Shown here piece by piece: positions 5,775 to 50,028 of a stretch of 50,028 bases of DNA. Location: assembly GCF_004010195.1 (NCBI RefSeq), contig NC_057719.1, forward strand, positions 47,176,735-47,226,762, read 5' to 3'. Position 1 is the stretch's first letter. Each line of letters opens with the position of its first letter. Made by a program: the position numbers and the translations under genes. The notes beneath the pieces were generated by a model. The model ran no database searches and was not told where the DNA came from. It saw only the letters and a list, made by a program, of their open reading frames with translations. This DNA is from Chiloscyllium plagiosum. Lineage: Eukaryota.

Positions 5775-5986
5775 AAGATTAGAGTGGTGCTGGAAAAGCA
5801 CAGCAGATCAGGCAGCATACGAGGAGCAGGAAAATCGACATTTCAGGGCAGGAGCCCTTCAGCAGGAAGGGCTTTTGCCCGAAACATCGATTTCCTGCTC
5901 CTCGGATACTGCCTGACCTGGTGTGCTTTTCCAGCACCACTCTAATCTTGACTCTAATCTCCAACATCTGCAGTCCTCACTTTCGC
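5775..5986. mobile_element. PLE fold-back insertion (family A)
   Basis: Inverted arms ~5775-5860 / 5866-5949, 37-nt right extension, TSD CTGATCATT(G/A)TTGTT at 5760-5774 and 5987-6001. Confidence 0.9.
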
Positions 5987-6509
5987 CTGATCATTATTGT
6001 TGCCAACATACTTGTTGGCATACCTGGGTTTGAAAATCTATGTATTAAAAGTAGGTATTTAGCTGACATAGATCCACAAAGACTCTTTGAAAGAGTTTAG
6101 TGTCTGATATACATCCTCTTAAAGCTAAAAATGGAAGTGGAAGAATGGGAGGCATGGAAGCAGGTAAGGATGAGTCTGAGAATTTGACAACATTTTTCCT
6201 TTTAGTTTACCTACAATCAACCTTTACTTAAAATTGTCTGATGCTTGGCTTATTTACACATGTCATTCCCCTTTATCTGTTCAAATTACCACAGTAGCAA
6301 CGTCGTTTTTATACTTTTAAAGAAAGGTATAGAGCCGAAATCTCAATTGTCTATCCACATTGAGTCATTGAGTTTCTTTTTTGTTTCAGATTTTCAATAT
6401 TTTCAGTATTTTGTTCTTCACTTGAGAAATTGGAGTCCTTAGTATTCACAGAACCATAACTAAACTAAGTTAATGTTAAAGAATGAAGGTCATTAAAGAT
6501 ATGAAATGT

Positions 6510-6935
6510 TCTGAATTGAACTGAATTCACTTTATTGACACGTGCCCACATGAGCGCAGTGAAGGGTTTACAAGTCACCCTTTACGGCACCATCTGAGGT
6601 ACAAAGGTACATAGGTACAGATTCATGAGTACAAACTGGCTGGAAAAAAGTTAGAAAAATAAAGAAATAAAAAGTCCAGTATTACAGACCTTCCAAAGTA
6701 CAAGGTCATAGGAATAAATTAGAGAAAAAAAGAAATAAAAAGTTCAGAATAACACTCCTTCCATAATAATATAACAAAGAAAAATAAAGAAATTTCATAA
6801 AGAGAGAATTTAAGATCGAAAAGATACAGAGGGAATGGTTCTTCAGGGTAAAAGCAATTCCAGAGGCCATTCACACCACCAAGATAATCATTAAGAAATC
6901 CCAAAGAGAATTCAGAAGAAAGCTCTTCAGCCAAA
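6510..6935 (-). repeat. Unclassified repeat interrupting local sequence
   Basis: Starts with a short (CTGAA/TTGAA)n-like run and TTTATT (minus-strand polyA-signal-like); internal A-rich AAATAAAGAAAT subrepeats. Confidence 0.3.
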
Positions 6936-7290
6936 GTGTGGTAAGACTGTGGAAGTCACTCCCACAGGAATTGGGTGTAGCAAATATTTACTAAGAGGGA
7001 AAAGTCAGCAAAATGACAGTTAAACTTGGAAATAAATGTGCTGGTTGCACTAGACATCCATTTTGAAGTTTACAAGACAAGTCAATCAACATGTGCCAGT
7101 TTTACTGGTTTTCTTCACAAACTTATTTAAGGGGAAGTTAGACAAGCAATTGTTGGAGAAAGGATTATAACGTTACAATGGTAAATTGAGATGGGCAAAG
7201 ATATTCGGAGGTTGAATGCAGCGTAAACACTAGCATAGACTGGTTGGGCTGAATGGTCTGTTGCTGTGCTCTATATACAATGTTATCCTA
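6935..7290 (+). mobile_element. Old CR1 LINE 3' end
   Basis: GTGGTAAGACTGTGGAAGTCACTCCCACAG (VVRLW.SLP) and tail GCATAGACTGGTTGGGCTGAATGGTCTGTT typical of CR1 3' ends. Confidence 0.55.
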
Positions 7291-7325
7291 TGTAACACAT
7301 AGGAGACAATTGTCAGACCTGGAGT

Positions 7326-7522
7326 AAGTTTATTTGGAAGCTCTAGCTTTCGAAGCTCTGATTCTTCATCAGCTGGTTGTGGAGTAGAATCATCTCCACA
7401 ACCACTTGAAGAAGAAGCAGCACCCCAAAAGCTAGAGCATCCAAATAAACCTGTTGGACTAAAACCTGGTGTTGTATGATTTTTAACTTTGACAACCCCA
7501 GTGCAACACCGGCACCACCACA
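7326..7522. mobile_element. PLE fold-back insertion (family B)
   Basis: Inverted arms ~7328-7384 / 7394-7450; perfect 13-bp TSD TCAGACCTGGAGT at 7313-7325 and 7523-7535; minus arm has CTGATGA-A-GAATC..GCTTC-GAAAGCTA. Confidence 0.85.
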
Positions 7523-7947
7523 TCAGACCTGGAGTGTGGTGGTATCAGCTTGTTGAGGAATTTCTGATAAAAGAGATTACCATAGATAACTGGAGAATGA
7601 TTGATAAAGATTGACAGGCCAACTACCAACACAGTAAGTTAACAGGTATCAGCAGCTCATGATTGTGGAGATTAAGAGTTCAAGGCAGTATGGTCCAATT
7701 TGTTTTGAAGGCCATGGAGGAGAATTTCTGAAAATGGCAACCATTGTCTTGCTTAGGTCAAACAATTACAATTTCCATATTAAAAGGGGCAAATCATTCG
7801 AAACAGGTGATGGTTTTGGATACTGTTCAATTGGAGCTGGCAACTAAGGAGCATGAAGGTACTAACTTCATTTTGATGCCATCAGCATTACTACAACAAA
7901 AGTCAAAGGCAGAGACAGTTGCCCCCATTGACTCAATTCAGAGTATG

Positions 7948-8057
7948 AAAAGTGTGGTGCTGGAAAAGCGCAGCAGGCCATGCAGCCTGGCCTGCTGCGT
8001 TTTTCCAGCACCACACTTTTCAACTCTGGTCTCCAGCATCTGCAGTCCTCACTTTCT
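7948..8057. mobile_element. Short PLE fold-back insertion (family A) lacking the hammerhead core
   Basis: 35-bp inverted arms 7946-7980 / 7988-8022, 35-nt extension, TSD CTCAATTCAGAG(T/A)ATG at 7932-7947 and 8058-8073. Confidence 0.9.
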
Positions 8058-8789
8058 CTCAATTCAGAGAATGTTTGTTACTGAAGATTTGTCTCTTTTG
8101 ATCTGTTTTATTTTAAAATATGTGCATCTACAATTTAATAATTTTAATAAACAAATCTTCCACTTTTGACTCAGCTATTGTTTCTACACCTGAACTCATT
8201 TCAACTACACCAAGGGACTGTTTTTATCAATACTGTTTAAAGAGGGTATAATCATCTACAAAGATTATTTCAATAAATAGGTAAGTGATTGATATTATTC
8301 AATACACAAAAATGTTGGAATACAAACACATAAGTTGAATGTCAACAGATGGGCAAATTAATTATAGAATACAGCTTTTCTGAGAAAAACGTTTGGGGCT
8401 TCTTAAGTATCTTCCTGAAGGCCACTAAAGAAATATGGGAGTCTGTGTGTAGTCAGATGGGAATGTGCATAGGAGAATTTACAGCTGTGAAAGTATTTAA
8501 ACAGACCCAGGACCAAAACATTAAGGGCTGAAAATTAATGTACTCCCCCTTTTAGACATATTGTGGGGGAATGGGGGTCACAACTCCCAATCTGCCCATC
8601 CTGCTGAGCTCACAGCACGCAGACTTGTGCTGCCTCTCTTTATGTTGTGGTAGTGACATTCAGCTAAGAACGTCAACAGAGACCTGACAGTGTGCAAAGC
8701 TAAGAAATGTTTTAGCTAGCCTCCAGTTCTGAAAGGCAGCCTATTCCCCTTAAGATGCAAGCATCACAAGGAAGCTGCTGACAACCAGA

Positions 8790-10500
8790 AGTGCAATTGG
8801 ACTTAAAAATGGAACACCAGAGAAGAAAGAGGGTGCACAGGTTAACGGATATAATGCTGCAAGTTAACAGAAGCAGAAGGCCAAATTTCCACAGAAGGCC
8901 AGAAGCCCCTCAAGGCAAAACAATGAAAGGGAATGAATGCAGATTAGCAGTGAGGCCAACATTTGAAGTCTAGCCCGAGGTCTATGCAAAAGGTTCAATG
9001 ACATTACACGGATGCTTAAGGTCAGTGAATGCATCCTCAAAATGTGAACCACCACGCCAGCAACTGCACCACACACCCTTCACTCACTCATCATCAATGA
9101 TGCCAGTGTCACACTCACCTCTCACAGCCTTCACATACCTCCTGCTTTTGGCTATGCAGACACATTGTACAAACACAGCAACACAAACATTGACATTTTA
9201 CCCACTCTCATAGAATAACGTGGTACTGAATCAAAGGAAGCAGAATACAGCTGGTGAGGAACGAGCGTGCTGCATCTCCAAAGTTTGACTGAGAACACAG
9301 TGCTCACAATGCTCTGGGGCTGATTGCAACACAGCTCATTGTGTCCAATAATACTGAGAACATTGAGGGTGAAGTTGGATTTTATTGCCTTACATACCTT
9401 CTAAGAATCCGACTTCACCCTTATCCTCCAATCTGGAATGAAGGACCACTGTTAGTGGTGTGACCACAGAACTACAACTTTCCATCTCTTCTCATGCCAA
9501 TTGTCATCCCTGACATTTGTCTTGCAGACTTTCCAGAATTGCTGCCTGTCAAACCAGAACAGCCCCAGGAAGAAAAAATCGAAAAACTACACAGCGCTGA
9601 TGAAGGGGCAATATCCTTTACCAACATCTGTAACGCCTGCAGCCAACAGGCCGGATACTGGATGTACTATGTGTATCTTAAAGGCTAGTAGGGAGTGCTG
9701 AGTCACAGAACACGTGTAAACTGTGGTGAATGGACAGCTGTGTGGAGGTGCATCAGACAGCAAGGATCACTGTTGTCCTATTGTGAGGAACTTAGATGGG
9801 GACTTTGATGGGGCAGTTTAGGGAAAATATTTATGAACAGCCACACCGAGATGTTTGGTTCATTTGCAAATCTGACAGTCACTGTCAAAAGCATGGAGGA
9901 GGTTGAATTCAATGTGACACATGGCTTGTCTCACACAGAGTTTGGATCCTATCCTGTCCAGCAACAGCATGTAGACTGACTCATGATGTATGTCTGCTGG
10001 TCACTGTCTCAGTTTCCATTTCAGCCCAGGCATGAAACACACATCACATTGCTGCAGTAAGAACTCAGTTAGACGGGATCAAATCTTGCTTCTTTGAAGG
10101 TTCAGAGTGCTGTCTTCCTGGGTACTTGATGGACCTTGCAGGCTCTCATGGCAATGTTTCAATTAATCCTCCAACAAATCACTAGTATTACTGATCAATG
10201 CAGAGGAGTGGCTGTGATACTATGGAACTCAAATCCACTGCTGTTTCTCAGGAGGACAGCATTTGCACTCCCATCAACGCCATTGCAGTGATGCACTAGT
10301 TGTCGCCTCTCAGTCAGCTAGCCCAGACTGCTGCTGCCGATGCTTAGCTGATGCAGGCTGAAGTTCACACTTCAAGGCTCAATGTTATTCAAAGCTAACA
10401 GCAGTCTCCTCAAAGAAGCAGCAGCCTTGAGCAGCCATGCTATAACTACCAGGATTAGGAGGGGTAAAACTACTTGCAAAACAGGCTAAAAGAAGTGCAC
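8790..10500 (+). mobile_element. Degenerate PIF/Harbinger-like element, Myb/SANT (trihelix) ORF remnant
   Basis: Around 8934-9020 reads *MQISSEANI*SLARGLCKRFNDITRMLK followed by a GT donor, resembling W...VN...R...QCRKRFNDL; next segment ~9213 LNQRKQNTAG resembles HNRRER..TGGG; boundaries uncertain. Confidence 0.45.
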
Positions 10501-10767
10501 AATGACAAATAGTTCATCAATGTTTATTCACTTGAATGTTTTGCTGGCAAAAACTGTTATGGACTTTTTTTTGGCATCTTTTATGACAGAAACTTAGCCA
10601 AGAAACACTGATGGGGCATCGAAGATGGGTTGTAATGTAGGAATTGGTATACTATTAATAATATATTAATTTGTTATAAAGGTTAAGGAGGACATTGATT
10701 GATTAAAAACCTTGTGCACGTAGAAAGAAAGATGTGCCCCTTTAACAATCAGTTGATCAGTTAATTA

Positions 10768-10971
10768 AAAACCAAAAGAACTGCAGATGCTGTAAATCAG
10801 AGACAAAAATAGAAATTTCTGGAAAGACTCAGCAGGTCAGGCAGCATCTGTGAACAGAAATCAGAGTTAATGTTTCGGGTCCAGTGACCTTTCCTCAGAA
10901 TGTTAACTCTGATTTCTGTCCACAGATGCTTCCAGACCTGCTGAACTTTTCCAGAAATTTCTATCTTTGTC
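10768..10971. mobile_element. PLE fold-back insertion (family C)
   Basis: Arms ~10802-10870 / 10903-10971, 34-nt left extension, perfect TSD ATCAGTTAATTA at 10756-10767 and 10972-10983; minus strand CTGAGGA-A-AGGTC-ACTG-GACCC-GAAACATT hammerhead-like motif at ~10869-10898. Confidence 0.85.
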
Positions 10972-11954
10972 ATCAGTTAATTATTTGTTTTTCTTCACCT
11001 TGTACTTTCAAAACAACTGGAAAAATTTACATGGGACCTCTTTTTCCATTGGGAATTAGCCATGGAGGGTTTTGTATGGGACAGTGTTATGCAATAAAAG
11101 ATTAGGACAGCTCACAGACTCCCAGCACGCCTGCATTTTTGGTGGCCTTGAAGAGTCCGTGTTCCGCATCTACATAGGTTGTGTAAGGTTACAGCCTCTC
11201 TTCCAATGTTTGAGATTTGGATTGCACTTCAGTCCCACGTTGAACTTTGCTAACCAACATGAAGGGTGGTTGTGGGAGTGGGGGGTGCAAACTGAGCAGA
11301 GGACCTTTTCCTTAGCCTACTCCTGGACCTTAATTCAGGCAATAAGAGGTTAATTCAGCTGAACAGGTCGTTTGATGAAACTGTCTGGTTATCTTTGATG
11401 GATCTGTGTTTGCCTGGGTGCCCTCAGAGAGGAACCAGGCATTGTTCACTGGTTCACTTCAGTCCTTCCACAATTGGTGGATGCTGCAAGGGCTGGATTA
11501 CATTGTCAACCCCAAAATGGAGTTTTAGTTTAAATTTGATAAGGTTTCTTTGAAGTGTTGCTCATTGGTACAGTATCCCTTTAACTGACTGTCAATTAGT
11601 TAAATGTTCATTTGTTTCTCCATTTCTGAAAAGAAAATAAACAAAGACTTCTGGGACTCTGGGTGTTAGTTAGGAAGGAGGCAGACATATGCAATGTGCA
11701 TTCTGTAATTAATCTAGTACTAAGTAAAAGATTGGCATCTGGTTTCCTACTTCACCATCTGGTTTCACAATTAAAGTAACATGGTAGCAGAAGATGAAAA
11801 CTAAGAAACATTTTTCAAAAAAAAGATTGTAATCTGAGTTACTTTTTTGAAGAATGGCTGGAAGCAAGTGTAAGTTGTCAGGGTTTGATTAACAACTGAT
11901 GTTCTCTGAGTCTGAACCTTATGACCAGTAGAAAAATGAAGTGGATGTATGGAC

Positions 11955-12405
11955 ATAGATTCATAGAGTCATACAGCACAGAAACAGACCCTGCAGTCCA
12001 ACTCATCCATGTCAACTAATCTTCCCAAACTAAACTATTCCCATTTGCCAATATTTGACCCACACCCCTCTGAACCTTTCCTATTCAAGTACCTATCAGA
12101 ATGTCTTTTAAATGCTCCAACTGTACCTGCATCTACCACTTCCTCTGGCCAGTTCATCCCATATATGAACCACCTTCTCAGTGAAGAAATCAGCCCTCAG
12201 GTCCCTTTGAAATCTTTCTCCTCTTGCCTTAAAAATATGTCCTCTAGTTTTGAATTCTCCTACCCTGTGAAACAGATCTTTGCTATTCATCCTATCCATG
12301 CCCCTCATTATTTTATAAACCTCTCTAAGGTCACCTCCTATGCTCCACTTGAAAACATCTCGGTCTATCCAGCCTCTCCCTATGACTCAGATCCTCCAGT
12401 TCTGA
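11955..12405 (-). mobile_element. CR1 (HER1-like) LINE 3' end
   Basis: ORF 12108-12308 MRGMDRMNSKDLF...TRGHIFK..GERFQRDLRADFFTEKVVHIWDEL is the CR1 ORF2 C-terminus; (CATAGAGT)n tail. Confidence 0.9.
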
Positions 12406-12414
12406 CATAGGTTA

Positions 12415-12600
12415 GGTACTTTTTTTACTCGTTCGTGAGATGTCGACATTATGCTAGGCCAACATTTATTGCCCATCTCTACTTGACCTGGAGAAGGTGG
12501 TGGTGAGTTACCTTCTTGAACGATTACTGTTATTGCTGTGTAGGGACATTCAAGGGAGTTCCAGGATTCTGACCCAGCAACAGTGGAGAAGTAGTGATTT
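12415..12600 (-). mobile_element. CR1/L2-group LINE 3' end (family 2)
   Basis: CATTTATTGCCCATC...GAGAAGGTGGTGGTGAG...GGGAGTTCCAGGATT.TGACCCAG is the reverse complement of the family-2 tail. Confidence 0.7.
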
Positions 12601-12871
12601 AATTCCCATTTACTTTAAGAGAAAACAAGGTATGATCTTGGTATTATTGCTTCCTCATGAAAATAAAATGAGAAGCAAAATGTTTTGTGATCTGGAAACT
12701 CATCAGTTAAGTATCAATCAAGATTTGAAGATTGTATTGAGCTTCATGAATGAAAATTACAAAAAAGATGATCTGTTAGATATTGATGAGACAAGATCAG
12801 GTTGTGACAGACTTTGGTAAGTAGTTATTCAATAGGGGAATGTATGATGGACTATAATGATCTAAAAGATT

Positions 12872-13146
12872 TGGAGGAGCAGGTGTTGGACTGGGGTGGA
12901 CAAAGTTAAAAATCACACAACACCAGGTTATAGTCCAGCAGGTTTATTCGGAAGCACTAGCTTTCAAAGTGCTGCCTCTTCATCAGGTGATTGTGGAACA
13001 GGACCAGAAGACACAGAATTTATAGCAAAAAAGGTTACAGTGTCATGGAGCTGAAACAACCACCTGATGAAGAGGAAGCGCTTTGAAAGCTAGTGCTTCC
13101 AAATAAACCTGCTAGACTATAACCTGGTGTTGTGTGATTTTTAACT
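12872..13146. mobile_element. PLE fold-back insertion (family B) with two hammerhead-like motifs
   Basis: Arms ~12903-12994 / 13056-13147, 31-nt left extension, perfect 14-bp TSD TGATCTAAAAGATT at 12858-12871 and 13147-13160; CAC-CTGATGA...GAAAGCTA-GTG at 12955-12989(-) and 13061-13095(+) with weakened helix II. Confidence 0.9.
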
Positions 13147-13199
13147 TGATCTAAAAGATTGCAAAACATTCAAGTTAGAGATTCCTCATTCAGTGGTCA

Positions 13200-15050
13200 C
13201 ACTTAAATGGAGACCTGAGTGCGAACAGCTGGGTTGGAAAGACTGAATTGAAACATTGGCAGGGAAGTGGTAGCTGGACAAGGGCTACCTTCAAAGGGGA
13301 AATGATTCAGATATAGCCAGTCAACATATTTTCCCTCAAAAGGGAAAGATAAGGCAAACAAATCCAGAGTTCCTTGGCAATACTCCCTCAACCCTTGTTT
13401 TTGGGGTACAGAATTCCAAAGTCTATGCATAGCATTGAGGCAATACGTCGGCACATGTAGAGAACACAGAGGAACCTGAGAGCAACTGCGCTGCCAGACA
13501 GCTTAAAGGGAACATTGCTCCCTAGATGACAAAGGAAACAGAAAATAAGTTAAAGAAGGAAAATTGTGTTTATGACCAGTGTCAGGAAATAAGTACAACT
13601 GAAAGCCATACAGAATAATGAAGATTCAGAACGGAGGTGATAAAACAAATAATTAGGAGCAGAGAGGCATCACAAGAAAAGGCTGACAGTTAACATAAAA
13701 CAAAGTCCCAAAGTCTTCTATACACACATCAACCGTAAAAGCACGTAAAAGGAGGAGTAGGAACTAAGAGGGGATTCACACAGACAGGCAAAAGGCATGA
13801 TTATGGTGTTAAATCAATATTTGTCTTTTGTTTTTACCTACAGATGCTGCCAGGTCAGGATGACAGAAGAGGAAACTCAGTCACTAGAAGGGTCTAATAT
13901 TGAAAAGGAGGAGTTATTGAATAAGATATCAATGATTAAAGCTGATAAAGCACCAGGACCCAGTGTGATACATCTAAGGATATTGAAGGAAATAAGAATG
14001 GAAATTGTAGAGATAGCAGCAACAATCTTTCAATCTTCCCCAGACTTGAAGGACTGAATAAGTGCAAACATCACACCCTTGTTCAAAAAAGTTGTACAGA
14101 TAAGCCCAGCAATCACAGAACATCCGATTTATCTTCAATGGTGGTGAAACTGCTGGAAATAGTTATTTGCAATAGGATTACGTCATATGGAAAAAATGGG
14201 TTAATCCAAAAGAGTCAGCATGAATTCAGTAAAAGAAGATCATGACTAACATGGAGTTTTTTGAAGACACAACAAAGAAAGTTGATGAGAATATTGATGC
14301 AGTGTGCATGGATTTCCAATAAGTTCTTGATAGAATTATGAGAAAGGTGATAACTCATGGAATAAAAAGGTCAGTTCATGCAAAATTGGCTAAGGGATAG
14401 GAAATAGAGAGTAATGATTATTGGGAATTTTTCAGGCTGGAGGATGGTTTGTCATGGAGTTGGCTAGGGATTTGTATGGAGACTTTTGCTTTTCCTGACA
14501 TAAGTATCTATAAATGACCCAGATCTTGGTGTGGAAGGGACTATTTCAAAAGTCTGTAGATTACACAGAACTTGGGAGCAGCTGGTATAAAACTTCAAAG
14601 GGACATAAGCAATCAAGTGGAGTGGACAGATTGGTGGCACAAACCATTCAATGCAGAGAATTGGGAATAATACATTTTGGTACAAACAATCGGGAGAGAC
14701 AGTATAAGATAAAAGATGCCATACTAAAGATTGGGTGGGAGCAGACAGAGCTGGACATATGTATATAAGTCATAAAAGTTGGTAGGACAAGTAGAGGTGT
14801 TGTCAGTAAACCATGTAGTATACTCGGCTTAATTAATAAGGGCATGGAGTATAGGACTAAGGAAGTCATAATAAACTTAAACAAGACACTAGTTAGACCT
14901 CAGCTAGTGCACTGTTTAGGGGTCTGGGCACAACACCAAAGGAAGGATGTGAATGCATTGGAAAAAATGCAGAAGGTGTTCAGAAGAATTGTACTAGGGA
15001 TGAGATACTTCAGTTATGAGAATAACTTGAAGAAGTTAGGGACTATTTTT
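13200..15050 (+). mobile_element. Degenerate CR1 LINE ORF2 (reverse transcriptase)
   Basis: KADKAPGPSVIHLRILKEIRMEIVE..ATIFQSS; MEYRTKEVIINLNKTLVRPQLVHC..VWA..RKDVNALEKMQK; many stops and frameshifts. Confidence 0.85.
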
Positions 15051-15054
15051 GTTG

Positions 15055-16200
15055 GGTCAGTCGTCAACAGACCATTAGTTAGGGATAGTTATATGCCATT
15101 ATGTATGCCATAAAGACTCAGACAGACAGACATATTAAAATTGCCTAATGCTATATGTACCAGAAAAAACTTCAAAGCTTGGTTTGGAACTACAGTGGAT
15201 CAATTGAAGCGTAAGGTTTAGTCCTTTTTTCTGACATAGAAACATTTTCATCAGTCAGAACAAATTATTTACCAGCTTTTGATATGAAGTTGCAAGAAAT
15301 CAGTGAAGCACAAAAGGCAAGGTCAATTTTACAGAGATCGGGAAATTCTAGCCAGGTAGGTGGTAAAAATATAGTCCAAATGATCAGCTTTTCTGGAAGT
15401 ATCATGAAGAAAGGAAAATTTTGACTGTAATAGATGATCTTCTTGTCTTTAACTATAGGCAAGTAATACCCAAAGAAAATCTTCATTGAATCTTCATTGA
15501 AGGTCGGTTGGTAAAAATGAAGTGTAGAGCTCATGCATAGCTGTCTGTATGGAGGCAAGACAATTGGAAGAAATTGATCTTTTCATATCATTCTGCCATA
15601 GTTGTGCAATTAATAATCAGATATCAACTGAACCTTTAATATCTGGTGCATTCCCAGATTGGTCATGGCAAAAGTTAGGATTAGACATCTTTAGCTTTAA
15701 TGTGATCAAATATTCTTGCCCTTGAGAGTATTATCCCAGGTGACTAAAAGTTATGATACTGCACACAATGACAACTGGGGCATTGATGAAGTCACTGAAG
15801 TAAATCTTATTCACACACAACTTTCCAGCTGAGACTGTTTCAGAAAAATGTCTGCAATTTGTGAATGAATATATTAAGAAATTAGTACCAGAATCTGGAG
15901 TTAATCATGTCACTACTTCTCCTAATCATTCACAGAGAAGCCAAGAAAGTGGTGAAAATCATGGAGGTGCTAATGATAAGAATACTGACTGGGATTTACA
16001 GAATTACAAAGGGACACCCTTGAATAATGGAAATGCACCAGCAGAACTGCTTATGGATAGAAAGCTACAGCAAAACTTCTCTAGACAACAAGAGTAGGAG
16101 CAACTGAGGATGATCAAAAGAGAAAACAGAAGAGCCAACATAATTGCTGGCATAGAGCAAAGACTAAATTGGCTTTGGTACCCAGCTAGAAGGTATGGAT
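15055..16200 (+). mobile_element. Gypsy LTR-retrotransposon pol remnant (integrase)
   Basis: EPLISGAFPDWSWQKLGLDIF...FTHNFPAETVSE...GVNHVTTSPNHSQ...YKGTPLNNGNAPAELLMDRKL follows the Gypsy integrase pattern (PWQKVG.DLF...HG.P..V.SDNG...H.TSSP.YPQ...TP..G.SPAELL.GR.L). Confidence 0.8.
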
Positions 16201-16216
16201 CACAGACCCTCCAATT

Positions 16217-16640
16217 TGTTACAACCAGTCACTGGGCAAAGTTCCCTAATTTGTTATGCTTCCAGATAAGGCATCGTAAATTATCAAGCTCTCAGATAAG
16301 GAGAGATGAACTGTCTCTCCTTTGTATTTACACCTCTGAAACCACTTTCCCACCCCCCAACCCCAAGCCCTCTCAGAAACTGAGAGGTAACTCATGGGAT
16401 ATGGGTTTCTATTGTGAGGAGGTAATTAGATGTCTTGCATTTCTGTCTTTTGACATTTCTTCAATTTGAAGTTTCTACGATACCCATCAGGTGTGACATT
16501 CCAGAATTCCTCACCAGATAGATATTGAATTTAAATTCAGAGTCACCATTTGGCTAGCTTTATCTGAAAAAAAACACACATGTTGCAATTAAAAGTTCAG
16601 TATGTTAGTTGGTATTTCCGGACTCTGATTCATTGTCACA
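16217..16640. mobile_element. Putative solo LTR
   Basis: Begins TGTTACAA, ends TTGTCACA (TG...CA, imperfect inverted ends); 3' part (TCAGGTGTGACATTCCAG...) recurs at ~46795-46940 and weakly ~34700-34870; no TSD found. Confidence 0.5.
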
Positions 16641-17090
16641 ACAATATTAAATTCAGCTTGAAAGGTATGGTGCAGTGACAGATTAAACTGCGTGAAGGAC
16701 AAGAAAAGTGTCAGATTGAGTTCAAGTGAAGAGGAAAGAAAATGGCAGCATGAACTGAATGAAGGAGTATCCAAAAGATGGAAAGAGTGCCATTTGGAAT
16801 ATAGGGAGCAGACAATAAAAAGACTAGCAAGAGGCAGGCAATGGTTAAGAGAGAGGGAGAGAAAGTAAAAATGATGATGAAGAGGGAGGAGGAGAGAGGG
16901 GAAAAGTTGCATCTTTATTACGGCGACAACTCCATAAACAATTTAACAATCAAATTTTGCAACAGACTATGACAACACATCACCACAATGGGCACAAATT
17001 TCTCCATAATGAAGAATGGGAAGTTAACATTTTGATTGTAATCTTACATTACAGTGATAAAATGTTAGCTATTATAGCAGATTAAGTTAT

Positions 17091-17415
17091 GGAGGCAGTA
17101 TGGTGGCTCAATGGTTAGCACAGTTCAAAGGACCCAGGTTCAATTCCACCCTCAGGTGACTGTCTGTGTGGAGTTTGCACATTTTCCCCGTGCCTGTGTG
17201 GGTTTCCCCTTGGTGCTCCCATTTTGTCCCACAGTCCACAGATGAGCAGCCCATGCTAAATTGCCCATCATGTCCAGGGATGTGCAGGCTAGATGGATTA
17301 GCTATGGGAAATGCAGGGATAGGGACGGACGTGGGTCTGGGTGAGATGATCTTCAGAGGGTCGTTGTGGATTTGATGGGCTGAATGGCCTACCTACACAC
17401 TATAGGGATTCTATG
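17091..17415 (+). mobile_element. HE1-type tRNA-derived SINE
   Basis: A box TGGCTCAATGG, B box GGTTCAATTCC, GTCTGTGTGGAGTTTGCACATT core, CR1-like tail GGGCTGAATGGCC. Confidence 0.9.
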
Positions 17416-18153
17416 AAGTTACAATGTCCAATGGTTCACTTTAACAATGCTATTTTTCTACATCTAGTGTTCCGTTCTGCATTTTGAGTTTGTATTTTTT
17501 TCTAAGCCTTTGTTAATTTTCCAGATTGGCAAGTTGGTATACAAGTTGTTGTTAAATCAATGGAGGCAGCAAAACCTGCTTATCATCATTTCCTCTCCAA
17601 AAATGATCAGTTCTGTCAAACAAGAATAACTGTTCAGAACATCCAGTTAAAATTTACTACTGGTATTCCAGGGCTTTGTTGAAACAGATGGCATTTAATC
17701 AGCAAATTATGTGGGCAGTTTACCAACATCCCTCGGGAACAGAGGAGTGTTTCAATTCACTTTTGTCTTATCTATTGACACAGCAGGCTGTGCAGTAATC
17801 ATGTAGCATCACAAATCAAGCTTCTTTCTTCACTGATCATGTCATCACAAGCAAATTTAACAGTCTTTCATATAATGTGGCAAAAAGTGTTCCTTTTCTC
17901 ACTGGAAAACTCATTCGCCTCAGTTCTCGGTGTAATATAAAGCTGCTTTCTGACCTTTAGATCTTTAATCACTTCAGATAAATAATGACCTTAGACTCAG
18001 TGAAGCTGAAACTGCACGGGGTTCCACTGGCCTCCCATCGTAACTCCAGACAGAAATTTCAGCCCTATTTATAGAATTAACTGCATGTGTTACGTAGCCA
18101 GAATCTAAACCTCCTCTTCAGATTTCATCCCACAACTGCAGGAGGATAGTTTC

Positions 18154-18278
18154 CTAATGAAGGGTTTATGCCTGAAATGTCGATTCTCCTGCTCCTTGGA
18201 TGCTGCCTGATCTGCTGCGCTTTTCCAGCACCACATGCTTTGACTCTGATCTCCAGCATCTGCAGTGCTCACTTTCTC
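18154..18278 (+). mobile_element. PLE terminal-repeat solo insertion (family A), decayed hammerhead
   Basis: TSD CTGCA(G/A)GAGGATAGTTTC at 18136-18153 and 18279-18296; core decayed (CTAATGA...TGAAATGTC). Confidence 0.85.
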
Positions 18279-18679
18279 CTGCAAGAGGATAGTTTCAGTC
18301 CTGATCATGCTCCAATATCTTGTCTAAGTGACTACTGTTCTACTGGAAGCCTATGACAGTGATCACTGGTGAGTTATTACTACGCAATGATTGTCAAAGC
18401 CCAGTTCTCCCTTCACTTGACCTCTACACACACACACACCCTTGCAGCGGAGGTCAATGGAATGTTTGTTGATATCCTAACTCATGGGCATTCACACACA
18501 CTGTACCAACTAAACCTCAGTGAACTGACGACCAGCTTAGAGATGGGGAATCTGGATCTTTCTATCTTGACAGTACACATATTTTTGTCCTTAGCTAGAA
18601 GTAATGTAGTCTGGAAAATTGTGCCTGAAATTCTTCAGGGACTTTACTGTGCAGCACATTGGGAAGATGGAGTAGGCAA

Positions 18680-18937
18680 CCCAAAAAGCACTCTCCAAAA
18701 CCATGGCCACTACCATTTAGAAGGACAAGGGCAGCAAATGGAAATATACCCCAATTTCTGTAGTGGTTCTGGGTCAAAATCCTGGAACTCCCTCCTTAAC
18801 TGCATTGAGAGTCTACCTATACCCAATTGCAGTGGTTCAGAAATGAAGCTCATCAGTACCTACACAAAGGTAACTAAAGATGGGCAATGAATACTGGCAC
18901 AACCAGAAAAGCCCACATTCCCTGAATGAATGAAAAA
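18680..18937 (+). mobile_element. CR1/L2-group LINE 3' end (family 2)
   Basis: GSKSWNSL motif in ORF 18369-18890; TGAATGAATGAAAAA tail. Confidence 0.75.
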
Positions 18938-21643
18938 GTCCCAGGTAATGCTAAATGTGGGGTTCAATAGTTATAATCAGAGAAGCATAGATTAGGAAAC
19001 AATGAGTTATATGTTCAGAAATTGTCAAGATAATAATGAACTACCACTACATTCATTTTAAGAGATTCATTTTAATACTGAAACTATTTTAATTAGATGA
19101 AGATTGGTTAAACCAAAGCTTCTCATTATCTTCACTCGGAGTATAAGAGTTCACCAATGGTAAATAGGAAAAGGAGCAGATATCTGCTAGTCTGAGATTT
19201 AATTAATATCTGAAATTAGAGTTTCTCTCTAGTTCTATCCTATGTTTGTCCTATTACTAATTTCTGTTCAGTCTTGCTTGTTTTGCTTAAATAGTTTGGC
19301 CGGTAGATCTTCTGTTGCCGATGCTCTGATTGTGAGTAAGGTTAACATTTCAATGAAGTTCCCTACATCTTAAATTATTTGGTGGATGCTTACAATGATG
19401 AAAAGATGGATTTTGTGGTGGATTACGGGTGTCCTGGATTTCCTTTACTCATTAAGGCATATCCACAGGCAAGGGCAACCTTGCTTGGAAAACTGCATGG
19501 AGATGCCTTTAATTTGGGTCAAAGGGGAGCAATGATTCCTGCTCCTGCACCTACTGTCTAAAATCCAGCTAAACCAGTTCAGCTTTTCATCAATGGTGAC
19601 CCCATGATGTTGGCATTGCTGGACCCTATGATGACAATGCCATCAAAAACCTAGGGAATGCTTTCTCTTGAGCAGAATGGTTGTTACTTGGTACATGATT
19701 GAAACAATTATTGTCTAGGCCCCATAGTAAACTGGCTTGGACTGCTTTTATTTTATGTTCAATATCCTCTCAGCATCACTGCTAGTCCAATAACTATATC
19801 TTACATCCCCAACAATTTATTGTGCCTATAAATTACTCTAAATATAGGTAAACAAAATCAGGACACTGATCACAACAGAGAATCCCTATCCAGTGCTCCA
19901 AGCGCCAGAAAGTATCATATCACCACAGGAATTTCACCTCTTTGAAAAACAAACTGAACGTATTTTTGATCAGGTTGAGTTTCTGGCTCTTTACCAGGCA
20001 AATTGTTTATTTCAACTAAACAGGAAAATAACCAGTCTACAGAGTGAATCAAACATAACCACTACCTGACTTGATCCACGCATTCTCTCTGCATGCAGGT
20101 ATTAAAGTAGATTCTCACTTCTTACGCTGTGAACATTTCTGCAATTTGGAATTGGACTGGCTTCCCTGCTGGAATTGTACAAACCAAAACCACAGAACCT
20201 TTCTTATGCATTAAGCTTACCAATTCCTGGGGAAAACAGATTTCCCTCATGAATAAAATCCAAGCTCCTTTGAAGGTGGACAGAAACGAAAGGTTGCATT
20301 TCTTGTCTCAGTGTAACATATATATATATATATCCGATTGCTGATATTGCCTTATGATGCCAAACACACCAGGTGAAATCCACACCCTCCAACTATGCCA
20401 TGTCCAATTCCTGCTACACTCTCAGGACCTACCATGTCAACTTTGTGTTTATTGAGGAATCTATAATTATCTTCCAGTTTTGATCCAGTTTCTTTGTCAC
20501 ACTTTCATTTATTAATTAAGGCACAGGCCAGCAACACCTGCCCATTTTTCCATTTACTACCAGTGAACTCTTATATTCCCAGTGAAGATAATGAGAAACT
20601 TTGATTTAACCAATCTTCATCCAATAAAAGTAGTTTCAATATTAAAATGCAGCAGAGTATAAGATGCAATGCTGATGTATTGGAAGTTTGAACTGTACAC
20701 AAACTGAAAGTCTAGCAGCTAATCTGCATCTTGGCCGGTGTGCAAATAAATAAATATGCACAATGCAAGTCAGTCACATGGTGAGTTTCTTTTATGGGAT
20801 CATCTTTCCACAGTTAAGATTAAAATGACAAAATGATATTTGTCATAGAATTATGGAGATGTACAGCTTGCTAGGCTATTAACATGGATATATAGTAGAA
20901 GGTTGTTTACTCAAAGCTCAGCATACATCTTAATCAAGTTTCAAGAAGATGAGAAGGAAATATTCATTTACTGTTCATCAATTTAATATTGTGAAATGCT
21001 GGACAACCTTCCCTTGGCAGACCTCCTGAGACACCAACCTTTTTTCCTTATCTGCTGCCACACCTACTGAATATTTGAGGCTGCAATGACTGTGGTATTT
21101 CCTGCTCAGCAGTTTGAATGTTTCTTCTGTAAGGAGGTTGCCGTGTGATGCCAAAGAAAGCAAACCTCCCTGCCAGCAAGCACTTCTTTCATGAGCACTT
21201 CCAAACGTGCCTCAGAAAAAGGTGATGATTATCTTTCTTCAACCAGATCTCTCTGTGCCAAACAGGTGGATCAGCCCGTTGAATAGAAGCTGCAGCCTTT
21301 AACATCCATGTCAGCATGATTTTTCCTCCCTTCCTTGTTTTTCCACCCAGTAACAGAACATTTCCACACGCTGGGTCCAATACAAGCCAGAATTCATTAG
21401 GAATAGTTAACAGCGCTTCTTTAGGGAAACATCACAAGATTCTTCTGTCACGGTGTCACTGTGTTTGCTGAACCAAATTATTGCGCCCATTTCAATGTTG
21501 GCACCAGAAGATGTTCCCCAGAGACTGAAAGGATCAAAAAGAAAGGCATTGCAGAAATAAGTGAAATGTTAATAGGGTAATGATGATAGCCATAGACAAA
21601 AAATCAGAGTAGGGAGAGACAGGAGGCTAAAGGTGATTTGACA

Positions 21644-21874
21644 AACTACCTTCGTAGAAACTATATATGATTAAAAAGAAATGTCAGACAGCACTGAAAT
21701 AAATTAAATATGACTGGATTACTAATTGTAAGTTGAAACTTTATTGCTGGAACAGCACAGCAGGTCAGGCAGCATCAACTACCTTCGTAGAAACTATATA
21801 TGATTAAAAAGAAATGTCAGACAGCACTGAAATAAATTAAATATGACTGGATCAGATTTGATTACTAATTGTAA
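21644..21874. repeat. ~88-98 bp direct duplication flanking a 45-bp PLE fragment
   Basis: Copies 21644-21731 and 21777-21874 (second has 10 extra bp); intervening 21732-21776 GTTGAAACTTTATTGCTGGAACAGCACAGCAGGTCAGGCAGCATC matches the start of the 25864 copy. Confidence 0.9.
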
Positions 21875-22064
21875 CACAATTTTCAATAATTTGGCATTGA
21901 ATAAAATCAGGTTACCATCCAGGTTTGTTTAGGAATAAGATAATTCAAAACAAATCAAGGAAGAAAGCAAAAATGTAGATGTATTTGGCCTCCACACTTC
22001 TCTGCCATGTAAAGGAATGAGCAGGAAAAGAGAAATTTAGCAAGGATGAGTCTTATTCCAACTG

Positions 22065-22274
22065 TCAAAAAGAGCACACAACACCAGGTTATAGTCCAAC
22101 AGTTTATTTGGAAGCACTAGCTTTCAGAGCGCTGCTCCTTTGTCAGGTAGCTAGCTGATGAAGGAGCAGTTCTCCGAAAGTTTGTCCATCCAAATAAACC
22201 TGTTGGACAATAATCTGGAGTTGTGCGATTTGTAACTTTGTCCACCCCAGTTCAACACCAGTACCTCCACGCCA
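22065..22274. mobile_element. PLE fold-back insertion (family B), older
   Basis: Arms meet at TCAGGTAGCTAGCTGA (~22143-22158); probable diverged TSD TTATTCCAACTG (22053-22064) / TTATCCCAGCTG (22275-22286). Confidence 0.8.
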
Positions 22275-22302
22275 TTATCCCAGCTGGAATGGTGATCATC
22301 TG

Positions 22303-23150
22303 ATAGAAACATTGGAGCTGGAGTAGGCCATTCAGCTCCTTGAGCCTCCTCTGCCATCGAGCTCATGGCTGATCGTTAAGTTAATACAATTTTCCTGCAT
22401 AATTGCCATTTTTCCTTAATGTTACTAGTAAATAGAAAGCTATCAATCTCTCTTCGGATATTACTTATTGACTGAGCTTCCACAGCCATCTGGGATAGGG
22501 AATTTACAAAGGTTTACCATGTTCTAAAGTTCCTCTTTACTTCAGTCCTAAATGGTTTGTCTTTTATTCTGAGACTGTGTCCCCTCAATCTGGACTCCAC
22601 AGCCAGGTGAATCATTCTTTCTGTTTAATTGTTTAACTGTCTGTTGCTTTAAGAATTTTGCAAGTTTTTTTAACGTAAGATCACCCTTCATTCTTTTAAA
22701 CTCTAGAGAATACAGGCGTATTCTGGATCAGTGGTGCTGGAAGAGCACAGCAATTCAGGCAGCATCCGAGGATAGGCAAAATCGACGTTTCGGAGGCCTG
22801 TATGACAGGCTGCAGCCTGTGGGGCCCAGGTGAGTTTTGTCTGTGTATGACCGCAAGGTTTAATCTCCTCTCTCTGGGGAGGGGGGCTGGCTTTTACCAG
22901 GACCTCTGGTTAACCGGGTTCTTTTGCCCGAAACGTCGATTTTGCCTGTCCTCGGATGCTGCCTGAATTGCTGTGCTCTTCCAGCACCACTGATCCAGAA
23001 TCTGGTTTCCAGCATCTGCAGTCATTGTTTTTACCTCGTTGAGAATACAGGCGTAGTCTCATCTGTGTCTCCCCACTGAACAAACCTACCATCCCAGGAA
23101 TCAGTCTCATGAATCTTTGCTGCACTCCTTCTGTGGTAAGTATATCCTTC
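22303..23150 (-). mobile_element. Old CR1-type LINE 3' portion, interrupted by a PLE insertion
   Basis: GGAGTAGGCCATTCAGC tail; ORF 22910-23125 starts MQQRFMRLIPGMVGL, typical of CR1 ORF2. Confidence 0.7.
22721..23040. mobile_element. PLE fold-back insertion (family A) with 127-bp unrelated spacer
   Basis: Arms 22720-22793 / 22928-23001 nearly identical, 39-nt extension, perfect 15-bp TSD GAGAATACAGGCGTA at 22706-22720 and 23041-23055. Confidence 0.92.
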
Positions 23151-25863: not shown

Positions 25864-25956
25864 GTTGAAACTTTATTGCTGGAACAGCACAGCAGGTCAG
25901 ACAGCATCCAGGGAACAGGAGATTCGACGTTTCGGGCACAGGCCCTTCTTCAGGAA
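25864..25956 (-). mobile_element. PLE terminal-repeat solo insertion (family A)
   Basis: Perfect 14-bp TSD TTAGTTTGCTGCCA at 25850-25863 and 25957-25970. Confidence 0.9.
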
Positions 25957-26869: not shown

Positions 26870-27360
26870 CTTCACAGAGACAGAAAAGCTGCAGATGCTT
26901 GGTGAAACATCTCAGCCAGGCCCGCAGGGGCCATCTTGACCTCCCAGTCATTGTCCATTTTAATTCCCCTTCCGACTCCCTTTCCAACATGTCCATCCTT
27001 GGCCTCCTCCTTTGCCACAATGAATCAAACCACAAATTGGAGGAACACCTCATCCTCTGCCTGTGCAGCCTACAGCCTGGAATCTCCAATTTCAAATAAC
27101 CTCCCTTCCCATCACTCGACTCCCTTCCCAATCCCTCCCCCCTCCTTTCCATTCCTCTCATCGACCCTTCCTTTGTACCCTCTGCCTGGGTTCACCTATC
27201 CTCACCTCATCACCCTGTGCTCGCCCGACCCCCTTTATCCGCAGCTCTCCCTAAGCCCACTCCCCCATGTCCTGAAGAAGGGTTACACCCAAAACGTAGA
27301 CTTCTCCACCTCCTGATGCTGCCTGGCTTGCTGTGTTCTTCCAGCCTCCTGCTTGTCTGC
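26870..27360 (+). mobile_element. Penelope-like retroelement 3' end (GIY-YIG endonuclease C-terminus plus terminal repeat)
   Basis: ORF 26899-27099 KHL...DLPVIVHFNSPSDSLSNMSILGLLLCHNESNHKLEEHLILCLCSLQPG; pyrimidine-rich UTR; GTC-CTGAAGA-A-GGGT-TAC-ACCC-AAAA-CG-TA-GAC (27269-27301, G12 mutated to A). Confidence 0.85.
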
Positions 27361-31997: not shown

Positions 31998-32340
31998 TTA
32001 TATCGCTTGATAATTGCAAAGATATCTAATCTTCAAATTATAGATATTGGCATAAAAGTAAGTTGCGGCAGGCCAGCCTGGCCAAGGGCTAATGCCCGAA
32101 ACGTCGATTCTCCTGTTCCCTAGATGCTGCCTGACCTGCTGCGCTTCTCCAGCAACACATTTCCATCTCATGTGGAAACACAATCCTGTGTCATGTGGGG
32201 AATCATGGAGATTATATCGCTTGATAATTGCAAAGATATCTAATCTTCAAATTATAGATATTGGCATAAAAGTAAGTTGCGGCAGGCCAGCCTGGCCATG
32301 TGGAAACACAATCCTGTGTCATGTGGGGAATCATGGAGAT
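31998..32340. repeat. ~129-bp tandem duplication; first copy carries an 86-bp PLE fragment
   Basis: Copy 1 31998-32211 with insert 32085-32170 (AGGGCTAATGCCCGAAACGTCG...); copy 2 32212-32340 uninterrupted. Confidence 0.92.
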
Positions 32341-33163: not shown

Positions 33164-34101
33164 TGTTATGATGGAGAAGTCAAATCCCTCTGTTAATTAA
33201 AACCATTTACCCAGAAAAGCTTGCCTTGCCTCATAATGTATAAAAAGGTGAGGGGGTGACAGAGAACTCCTGATTTCCACTATTTAAAGAAAAAAAATTC
33301 CTAACTCTAATAGTGAACACGAAACAAAACTAGTAACAAACCAAACACTGTTTCCCTTAACTGAACACAATCCTATTAACATGTTGTTCCAGTAACACAC
33401 TTATTAAATACTACACTAACTTAATCTCAAGTCCACAGTCTCTGTCTTCTCCGCTGTCTTCAATCTTCTGTCTGCTGATCTCACTTGGTTGTCTTCTTTC
33501 TTTTAACTGCCAGTATGTTTTATAAAGTTACTTTTTGATAAAGAGTGTCTTCTAATTTCTTTGACAGCAAGATGTTAGATGGGCAGTTAGCTCTCTGGCT
33601 CTACGGCAGTTGCTCTACTGATCATTGGCAGTTGCTCTCTGACCAAATTTTCAAAATTCCCCGGTTTTAAAACCCCCAACATCATTCCCTGCCATAGGTC
33701 TGATATCTAGGAGAAAGTGAGGACTGCAGATGCTGGAGATCAGAGCTGAAAATGTGTTGCTGAAAAAGCACAGCAGGTTAGGCAGCATCCAAGGAGCAGG
33801 AGAATCGACGTTTCGGGCATGAACCCTTCATAGGTCTGATTTCATCAAAACAATAAATTCAAACTCAATTTAGTTTTAGTATCCTGAGCATAATATAAAG
33901 TAATTGGTTAAATTTGAATTGTTGTCAAAACAGCAACCAAAACTCAGGTATCCATTTAACAGCCATTTGTTACATGTATCTATTTGGGAACAGTCCATCT
34001 CTAGCTGTTCTGTTCTACAGCTGGGGTTGTACTTTAAATTTACTTCAAAAATTCAGAAAACACTCTCTAAAGTGAACATACATGTGTTCTACTTCATAAT
34101 G
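33164..34101. mobile_element. Putative solo LTR (Gypsy-type)
   Basis: Starts TGTTATGA, ends TCATAATG (6/8 inverted match), 4-bp TSD GTAT at 33160-33163 and 34102-34105; splits CR1 ORF1 cleanly. Confidence 0.65.
33705..33828 (-). mobile_element. PLE terminal-repeat solo insertion (family A)
   Basis: Perfect 12-bp TSD CATAGGTCTGAT at 33693-33704 and 33829-33840; 5' end truncated inside the hammerhead core. Confidence 0.9.
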
Positions 34102-39141: not shown

Positions 39142-39473
39142 AACATTGGGGAGACTGGGCGCCTCCTAGCAGAGCGCTTTAGGGAACATCTCCGAGACAC
39201 CCGCATTGATTTGTCCAGACTTGTCCGACCTGCCTAGCTCCTTTTCCACCTATCCACTCCACCCTCTCCTCCCTGACCTATCACCTTCATCTCCTCCCCC
39301 ACTATTGTACTCTATGCTACTTTCTCCCCACCCCCACCCTCCTCGAGCTTATCTCTCCAAGTTTCAGGCTCTCTTCCTTTATTCCTGATGAAGGGCTTTT
39401 GCCCGAAACGTCGATTTTGCTGCTCGTCGGATGCTGCCTGAACTGCTGTGCTCTTCCAGCACCATTGATCCAG
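39142..39473 (+). mobile_element. Internally deleted Penelope-like element 3' end
   Basis: 39145-39204 encodes IGETGRLLAERFREHLRDTR (GIY-YIG YIG..R...R..EH region), joined to a pyrimidine-rich UTR and family-A terminal repeat. Confidence 0.85.
39381..39416 (+). ncRNA. Minimal type-I hammerhead ribozyme motif
   Basis: ATTC-CTGATGA-A-GGGC-TTTT-GCCC-GAAA-CG-TC-GATT; core intact, helix I has one mismatch. Confidence 0.7.
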
Positions 39474-39639: not shown

Positions 39640-39998
39640 CTGTATAGAATGAGCTGCCAGATGGTGTGGTGGAGGCTGGTACAATTGCAACATTTAAGAG
39701 GCATTTGGATGGGTATATGAATAGGAAGGATTTGGAGGGATATGGGCCGGGTGTTGGCAGGTGGGACTTGATTAGGTTCGGATATCTGGTCGGCATGGAC
39801 AGGTTGGACCTTCCTGGTGAAGGGCTTTTGCCCGTAATGTCGATTTTTCTGCTCCTCAGATGCTGCCTGACCTGCTGTGCTTTTCCAGCACCACTCTGAT
39901 GTAAACTCTAGTTTCCAGCATCTGCAGCCCTCACTTTTGCCAGGTTGGACCGGAGGGTCTGTTTCCATGCTGTACATCTCTTTGACTCTATGACTCTA
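39640..39998 (+). mobile_element. CR1 LINE 3' end interrupted by a PLE
   Basis: VVEAGTIATFKRHLDGYMNRKDLEGYGP; (TGACTCTA)n tail. Confidence 0.9.
39811..39940 (+). mobile_element. PLE terminal-repeat solo insertion (family A), decayed hammerhead
   Basis: Perfect 11-bp TSD CAGGTTGGACC at 39800-39810 and 39941-39951. Confidence 0.9.
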
Positions 39999-49805: not shown

Positions 49806-49840
49806 CACTAGCTTTCGGAGCGACGCTCCTTCATCAGGTG
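49806..49840 (-). ncRNA. Minimal type-I hammerhead ribozyme motif, intact
   Basis: CAC-CTGATGA-A-GGAGC-GTC-GCTCC-GAAA-GC-TA-GTG: helix I CAC/GTG, helix II GGAGC/GCTCC, palindromic AGCT helix III, CUA site. Confidence 0.8.
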
Positions 49841-49992
49841 ATTGTGGAGGGCTCGATCGTAACACAGAATTTATAGCAAAAATTTGCAGTGTGATGTAAC
49901 TGAAATTATACATTGACTTCAATGTATAATTTCAGTTACATCACACTGCAAATCTTTGCTATAAATTCTGTTACGATCGAGCCCTCCACAAT

Positions 49993-50027
49993 CACCTGAT
50001 GAAGGAACGTCGCTCCGAAAGCTAGTG
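49993..50027 (+). ncRNA. Minimal type-I hammerhead ribozyme motif (one helix II mismatch)
   Basis: CAC-CTGATGA-A-GGAAC-GTC-GCTCC-GAAA-GC-TA-GTG. Confidence 0.7.
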
Positions 50028-50028
50028 T

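Follow-up and report, generated by a model that had tools for sequence, protein, structure and literature searches.

Among the closest described systems is Poseidon_Ac (PAc), a Penelope-like element (PLE) of Anolis carolinensis in which reverse transcription (RT) has two internal starts, the 30-40 bp tail being the sequence between them; both target strands are cleaved and extended in vitro, and a dimer is predicted (PMC11167929). The part of a review considered here ascribes the inverted 5′-truncated PLE copy, often with a tail at one end, to endonuclease resolution (PMC8557442), and the part of a rotifer study considered here describes Pen2a_Av as an inverted pseudo-long-terminal-repeat (pLTR) unit, one repeat of which bears a 31-bp tail, inside a 9-bp target site duplication (TSD), and proposes self-priming (PMC3846280). 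The route to PLE inverted ends is still termed undefined in the literature consulted. In the twin priming of L1, which Ostertag and Kazazian reportedly described in 2001, both 3′ ends of a staggered cut are said to prime cDNA, leaving an inverted segment, one TSD and a microhomology joint. Here we consider a 50,028-nucleotide (nt) stretch of Chiloscyllium plagiosum contig NC_057719.1 (the window, whose coordinates are used throughout), which holds dead, 5′-truncated ends that very probably derive from endonuclease-positive (EN+) PLEs. These copies, assigned to families A-D, end either with the tail (a long end) or just before it (a short end), and every two-ended insertion pairs one of each.

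The shark copies resemble canonical EN+ PLEs, as far as the consulted parts of PMC3846280 and PMC8557442 describe them, in their head-to-head arms, tail at one end, TSD, junction palindromes and hammerhead. They differ in that the units are 110-320 nt long and lack an open reading frame (ORF), in that their TSDs are 11-18 nt rather than the 8-10 bp of the rotifer examples (PMC3846280), and in that a short end is found with a long end in all eight cases counted, whereas the tail is termed optional in those parts of the literature. PAc is alike in that two internal starts flank the tail, genomic ends fall on the starts and a hammerhead lies upstream; by eye, a distance of 90-97 nt separates its +111-118 site from the G of the hammerhead GAAA (PMC11167929), compared with 94-99 nt for long ends of family C and 105-111 nt for those of A and B. 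PAc prefers ATT in AT-rich targets and its ORF begins inside the hammerhead (PMC11167929), whereas no such bias appears at 12 shark sites and no conserved frame begins there in the shark families. Neither inverted insertions nor TSDs are connected with the two starts in the part of the PAc text considered here.

Fold-back insertions and their two 3′ termini

Self-BLAST of the window, which is blind to arm symmetry, recovered nine local inverted pairs, eight of which are Penelope-like fold-backs (Table 1). The ninth, at 29223-29288, is unrelated: a small fold-back with ~24-bp arms unlike families A-D. Read along the top strand, the left arms are all antisense and open at an element 3′ end straight after the TSD, the right arms being their mirror images. 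Self-comparison and a TSD search placed five fold-backs, the outlier at 7326 and seven solo ends where the original prediction, a note drawn from the DNA letters by themselves, had put them, and the 12-16 bp TSDs that it had given for the five fold-backs measured 15, 16, 12, 14 and 14-15 nt. Its one-sided extensions were borne out at 37, 35-37, 34, 31-32 and 39 nt when measured from a family anchor (the 7948 extension being 37 nt, or 35 nt with a 2-nt microhomology assigned to the arm, and that at 12872 being 32 or 31 nt likewise), but the extension of the 7326 copy is 70 nt and not 72 nt. It had also counted three families; family C is indeed distinct, but downstream of the hammerhead A and B can be aligned with each other, so the three represent two independent sequence lineages.

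TSD scores of ten insertions (six fold-backs and the solo copies 18154, 25864, 33705 and 39811) ranged from 11 to 16, while among 300 random boundary pairs 299 scored at most 8 and one scored 24. The TSDs have an A+T content of 0.60, compared with 0.61 for the window, and vary from 11 to 18 nt with no sequence preference; no nick-site motif was found in 24 nick contexts of 12 insertions. The fold-back centres in the window all differ from one another. In the young copy at 22720-23040, whose arms are identical at 73 of 74 positions, the centre holds a 127-nt GC-rich filler (22794-22920) that is not element sequence and whose source was not found within the window, while the centre of the 49752 fold-back is a near-perfect palindrome at 49916/49917. 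The left junction of the 12872 insertion recurs in contigs of two related species (organisms B and C), and no empty site was found in reads or in the contigs of organisms B and C because the insertion is common to them.

The 3′ ends of these copies cluster at two points. In the A/B/D lineage they lie 12-17 nt (nine arms) or 49-56 nt (seven arms) past the anchor with none between, a gap that was reached in 0 of 200,000 uniform draws, and the short ends of the nine arms are confined to a 6-nt window. Family C ends lie 37-39 nt (n = 3) or 70-75 nt (n = 3) past its anchor, with the 7326 outlier at 2 nt; omitting the outlier, a gap of this size was reached in 1,992 of 200,000 uniform draws. The copy at 1-80, whose 3′ end lies outside the window, was excluded from the end counts. 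Solo copies show both termini, with short ends at 21732, 25864, 32169 and 39473 (n = 4) and long ends at 18278, 33705 and 39940 (n = 3). The two preferred starts about 35 nt apart that had been predicted thus agree with the bimodal ends in the window and in reads (below), and have already been demonstrated for PAc (PMC11167929); their spacing is kept across families, as had also been proposed, at 31-39 nt in A, B and C, in agreement with the published 30-40 bp.

The outlying left end of the 7326 copy was considered as a third start site and rejected, as no depth step or listed loose end was present near 12940 in the family C alignment. The arm contains a candidate 37-nt deletion between GTT microhomologies. 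We prefer, without regarding it as proven, a deletion that followed an ordinary short start.

Short and long ends are paired

All eight two-ended insertions, including 22065 and the family D insertion, pair a short end with a long one, for which independent choice of ends gives p = 0.003-0.004 (0.006-0.008 for the seven fold-backs without family D); the count includes the 7326 outlier and the 22065 fold-back with its weak TSD, and leaves out 49752. Of the two arms, the short one extends further 5′ in three fold-backs and the long one does so in three; in another two the arms are equal within 2 nt. Simple copy-back from the long arm predicts that this arm always reaches further, which fits neither the 3/3/2 split nor the family D insertion, whose two arms share no overlap. 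Each of the eight fold-backs has at least one variant that is common to its two arms and occurs in no other copy in the window, which points to one source. The arm identity of 30/38 in the 7326 copy spans a shortened overlap, the centre being placed ~15 nt too far right.

Table 1 Fold-back, two-ended and solo insertions of Penelope-like elements in the window.
Feature	Positions	Strand	Ends and contents	TSD
Family A fold-back	5775..5986		left arm antisense, short; right arm sense, long (tail 5950-5986)	5760-5774 / 5987-6001, 15 nt, 1 mismatch
Family C fold-back, outlier	7326..7522		right arm long; left arm starts ~36 nt inside short point	7313-7325 / 7523-7535, 13 nt
Family A fold-back, 110 nt	7948..8057		left short, right long (tail ~8021-8057)	7932-7947 / 8058-8073, 16 nt, 1 mismatch
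Family B fold-back	10768..10971		left long (tail 10768-10801), right short	10756-10767 / 10972-10983, 12 nt
Family C fold-back	12872..13146		left long (tail 12872-12902), right short; hammerhead cores 12986-12962 (-) and 13064-13088 (+)	12858-12871 / 13147-13160, 14 nt
Older family C fold-back, missing from the original prediction	22065..22274		left short, right long	weak: 12 nt, 2 mismatches, score 6 (10/300 random boundary pairs reach 6)
Young family A fold-back	22720..23040		left short, right long (tail 23002-23040)	22706-22720 / 23041-23055, 14-15 nt
Family C fold-back	49752..50028		left end short; right end beyond window; missing from the original prediction	
Family D insertion, missing from the original prediction	26880..27358		long arm of ~22 nt at 26880-26901, antisense and consisting of tail only; followed by sense arm (~450 nt) with GIY-YIG C-terminal remnant 26899-27096, pyrimidine-rich 3′ untranslated region (UTR) and short end; hammerhead-like motif near 27270	decayed, 15-21 nt
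Family A solo	18154..18278	+	long end	18 nt, 1 mismatch
Family A solo, 45 nt	21732..21776	-	short end; within 76+15 nt flank duplication	
Family A solo	25864..25956	-	short end; hammerhead core 25953-25930	14 nt
Family A solo	32085..32169	+	short end; within exact 129-nt flank duplication	
Family A solo	33705..33828	-	long end	12 nt
Family A copy	39145..39473	+	short end; GIY-YIG core remnant 39145-39210, 3′ UTR, hammerhead core 39385-39408	
Family A solo	39811..39940	+	long end; sits in another repeat (39621-39992)	11 nt

Family C termini in raw reads

Two raw-read runs of the species (X19 and X20) and contigs of the two relatives were aligned to the long arm 12753-13052, to which 58,635 and 56,778 reads aligned in the two runs. 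The original prediction had proposed a genome-wide test of 3′ ends; for family C this gave two termini 36-37 nt apart, which are the two dominant peaks among the loose ends and joints listed rather than features of a full histogram. In X19 and X20, respectively, 10,009 and 9,562 reads end at 12868 and 5,046 and 5,041 at 12904 and 12905 together, and flank agreement is random (0.34-0.39) at both termini. Among the loose ends listed for the contigs of organisms B and C the termini are 12868 and 12902; further contig peaks at 12882-12883, where the loose letters are element-like (agreement 0.5-0.56), come from long copies whose alignment was clipped at changes private to the reference arm. The largest 10-nt depth step falls at 12903-12912, with 61% of the plateau present before it, a comparison affected by the smaller amount of sequence that short copies give to align.

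Fold-back joints, in which the two parts of a read lie on opposite strands, have 20-44 read starts each, and the architecture is therefore genome-wide. The nine distinct tandem joints listed, in which a read goes back within the element, restart at 12903-12905 in seven cases, at 12872 in one and at 12883 in one. From a depth of ~49,700 in 1,934 million letters, and assuming a genome of 3.5-4.5 Gb, we estimate ~100,000 family C ends per genome. Tail-to-tail joins, running from a long end straight into a short start on the opposite strand, were seen in four contigs of organism C, two of organism B and one read. The reads at 12860-12872 extend the family C consensus a few bases past the copy and place a sense ATG at the long end, which is possibly the start of the next ORF.

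A candidate helix in the tail

In the long arms of families A and B, CAGCATC(TG), 8-21 nt past the short point, can pair with GATGCTG 39-49 nt before it; the two strands are the best-kept columns, and 96% of cells are paired. In family C, CAACACC, 15-21 nt past the short point, can likewise pair with GGTGTTG 16-22 nt before it. In the PAc template, by eye, CAUGGCC (+50-56) pairs with GGCCAUG (+94-100), 11-18 nt before the +111-118 start (PMC11167929), and Fig. S1B of that paper may already draw this helix. We tentatively suggest that an RNA helix of 7-9 bp, formed by the tail with sequence that precedes the short site, could position both starts. A match to the tail motif at 13849 was excluded from the counts, as it is the upstream helix strand of a short sense fragment (13820-13860) that resembles family B upstream of the short point, and not a tail.

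Proposed twin priming and its alternatives

We regard twin priming with one start site per nick as moderately probable. The GIY-YIG domain would nick both strands 11-18 nt apart, as the TSDs suggest, and the two resulting 3′ overhangs would give rise to the TSD. As shown for PAc (PMC11167929), RT would begin internally on the RNA, at either of two sites separated by ~35 nt; primer and RNA would often pair over 0-3 nt, and this would scatter long ends over ~8 nt. Both nicks would then prime cDNA on RNA of common origin, the first using the long site and its partner the short site or the reverse, so that the 3′ ends would both point outward and only one arm would bear the tail; this division could plausibly come from the two halves of a dimer, or from re-priming at the short site after a start at the long one. 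The like-sense cDNA 3′ ends would be joined via a local palindrome, microhomology or filler, and priming at a single nick would yield a solo copy with either end. L1 twin priming is alike in that both 3′ ends prime and the inverted segment lies within one TSD; its second start is said to be variable and its segments barely to overlap, whereas the shark insertions use a fixed site 35 nt away and both arms copy the same sequence. A more specific proposal, which we hold tentatively and rate below twin priming itself, is a coupled pair of starts: one RNA on a dimeric PLE protein would present a different site to each nick, long to one and short to its partner (or would be started at the long site, every re-priming then using the short one), with the tail helix setting the 35-nt spacing. 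As part of this proposal, pairing of the tail with a segment that lies 20-50 nt before the short site would be kept in the unrelated sequences of shark A/B, shark C and anole PAc. Twin priming applied to PLEs, counts of end pairing and a conserved tail helix were not found in the literature searched, which was mostly without subscription papers.

Several observations count against this interpretation, the steps of which are proposals. The prediction that each nick of a staggered cut uses one start agrees with the geometry, with the eight of eight short and long pairs and with the cleavage and extension of both strands by PAc, but PAc start sites did not differ between strands in vitro (PMC11167929). 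Genome-wide end data are confined to family C, and the peak at 12868 is due in part to the reference stopping there, adjacent loose letters still being element-like. Partner arms are each other's best match in only five of eight fold-backs, and a possible later deletion of centres in palindromes weakens the arguments from the longer arm and from the tail-only arm. Partners stop at similar 5′ positions beyond shuffled partners (16 of 576 permutations) and two of eight centres (22065 and 49752) are near-perfect palindromes, both of which a snap-back fits equally well. The candidate helix shows no compensatory change in 13 pairs, whole-arm folding is unremarkable (z-scores of -1.1 to +0.3), and tail shuffles equalled the observed helix in 1-6 of 500 cases for three arms at the best setting and in 26-205 of 500 for the other six, so that only three of nine long arms beat 99% of shuffles, or nearly so.

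In an alternative that we consider doubtful but worth weighing, a single primary strand, either cDNA or antisense RNA, primes its own copying from a palindrome, and the endonuclease then trims the end of the resulting hairpin asymmetrically, so that one arm is long and the other short. Such a hairpin intermediate would explain the strict pairing of short and long ends, the variants shared between arms, the concordant 5′ ends (16/576) and the palindromic centres at 22065 and 49752. A fixed stagger, however, predicts that one class of arm owns the loop, and we observe three short and three long; the family D arms do not overlap, the centre of the 22720 copy is 127 nt of foreign filler, and short ends also open tandem repeats and solo copies, while PAc RT begins directly at both sites in vitro (PMC11167929). 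If instead two separate ribonucleoproteins each chose a start independently, the pairing would be small-sample luck. PAc does use either site on either strand (PMC11167929), solo copies show both ends (four short, three long), and only eight two-ended insertions were examined; yet neither a long+long nor a short+short pair occurs among the eight (p = 0.003-0.004) although inverted pairs were gathered regardless of symmetry, and the tail is often at one end only according to the part of the review literature considered (PMC8557442). We accordingly judge independent choice improbable.

Two further explanations strike us as less probable still. There might be a single true end, with short ends produced later as the tail was deleted or decayed, or with long ends owed to read-through of an unrelated kind; the possible 37-nt deletion in the left arm of the 7326 copy shows that such loss can occur, and old copies are degraded. 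TSDs directly adjoin the short ends, however, which lie in a 6-nt window across nine arms and match a sharp genome-wide step, and both ends are present already in the young 22720 copy (73/74 identical); a second terminus this sharp, bounded by intact TSDs, largely refutes this explanation. The insertions might also be a self-propagating non-autonomous unit with asymmetric terminal repeats, such as a DNA transposon resembling a miniature inverted-repeat transposable element (MITE) or a hairpin short interspersed element, to which the inverted arms, the TSDs and the very high copy number lend some similarity. Against this, the same ends occur in solo copies and behind GIY-YIG remnants, and where a MITE has a fixed TSD, symmetric repeats and a shared interior, the TSDs here vary from 11 to 18 nt with no sequence preference, the ends are asymmetric and the centres all differ.

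Identity of the elements

We take the element order to be the end of the GIY-YIG domain, 3′ UTR, minimal hammerhead, short start, tail and long start. For the 80-residue frame of family D (26857-27096), 54 relatives were found at E ≤ 0.001 (best 2.8e-12), and the eight that were looked up are all elasmobranch proteins, from shark, ray or skate. Of 13 relatives scanned against Pfam, three give GIY-YIG at E values of 0.001-0.008, below the cut-off, and two frames of the window itself gave no Pfam match; several homologues show a C..C motif before YIGE. A Neptune-type CX2-5CxxC linker is present in four of the 54 (P0011, P0016, P0029 and P0043), most of the others being too short, and the copies in the window stop short of this region; Poseidon is without this motif according to the part of the review considered (PMC8557442). 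The skate and ray gene models P0029, P0032 and P0042 fuse a PLE endonuclease to DUF4518, a neuromedin-U receptor and NYAP, and are probably annotation read-through into repeats. Family A retains a weak GIY-YIG core remnant at 39145-39210 (tblastn E 0.015-0.6). Two findings count against the assignment to PLEs: families B and C have no protein in the window, leaving family C without a protein link, and neither an RT domain nor a full ORF was found within the window. Membership therefore rests on endonuclease remnants, hammerhead and architecture, and for family C on the last two; that family could belong to the Penelope/Poseidon clade, although the window holds no coding sequence for it.

Nine exact hammerhead cores with a helix II of 3-5 bp, counted without a shuffle control, all lie in copies of family A or C, and those of families B and D are decayed and were recognised by eye. 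The cores of A and C match the minimal type by eye, their cleavage being only predicted, and an Rfam search at the gathering score returned no matches. They resemble the minimal metazoan PLE hammerheads, as described in the part of PMC4209133 considered here, in an extra base before helix II, a G-C base of helix II, a palindromic dinucleotide for helix III and a short helix I; sharks are absent from the main text of that paper in the same part. Truncation at the 5′ end, an adjacent inverted copy, a 30-40 bp tail and a TSD are all present, while the partial tandem (pLTR) arrangement was not found in the window and short tandem restarts were seen in reads. No reading frame is conserved through the tail, frames shifting among subfamilies.

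Pattern scans for more copies gave 0, 0 and 0 matches in three viral contig sets. Metagenome contigs gave 81 matches, of which the 80 retrieved align over at most 34 nt, and GTDB gave one match of 24 nt; these alignments were judged to be chance. A word-index search found no longer protein relatives, and the best ESM Atlas value of 0.76 was uninformative. A fifth PLE family is probably represented at 45320-45820, where a very old remnant of an endonuclease C terminus (tblastn E 0.2-0.9) precedes a pyrimidine-rich tract and a degenerate hammerhead-like motif.

Other features of the window

No ordinary TSD was found at the solo copies 21732, 32085 and 39381 (the copy ending at 39473). At 21644-21874 a duplication of the flank (76 nt plus 15 nt) encloses the 45-nt short-ended arm, an arrangement that could be either an 88-99 nt TSD carrying an 11-nt indel or the product of templated repair. 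An exact 129-nt duplication at 31998-32340 has the order X-element-Y-X-Y, with the element only in the first copy, and could represent filled and empty alleles fused by recombination or by the assembler. Inverted repeats of 148 nt at 19068-19215 and 20503-20649, which are 86% alike and separated by 1.36 kb, resemble the termini of a non-autonomous DNA transposon, and local tandem duplications with units of ~147 nt and ~69 nt occur at 293-586 and 6642-6763.

Implications

An inverted copy with a one-sided tail and a TSD is the standard PLE insertion, and two RT starts are published (PMC11167929). With the architecture and start sites already known, the original prediction as stated therefore adds shark examples, in a group for which the part considered of a whale shark study reports PLE expansion (bioRxiv 10.1101/443036). 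What goes beyond the literature searched is the pairing of short with long ends in eight of eight insertions, the mixed outcome as to which arm extends further 5′, the long arm that consists of the tail only, the variants held in common by partner arms, the tandem restarts that favour the short site and the candidate helix. Many family C fold-backs are short enough for one read to cross both TSDs, so that the coupling of short and long ends, the ownership of the loop and the tail helix can be counted in the Chiloscyllium plagiosum genome, and the shark copies yield predictions for the existing PAc assay. If the coupled-start model is true, the tail, the inverted pLTR, the partial tandems and the TSD would all come from one mechanism.

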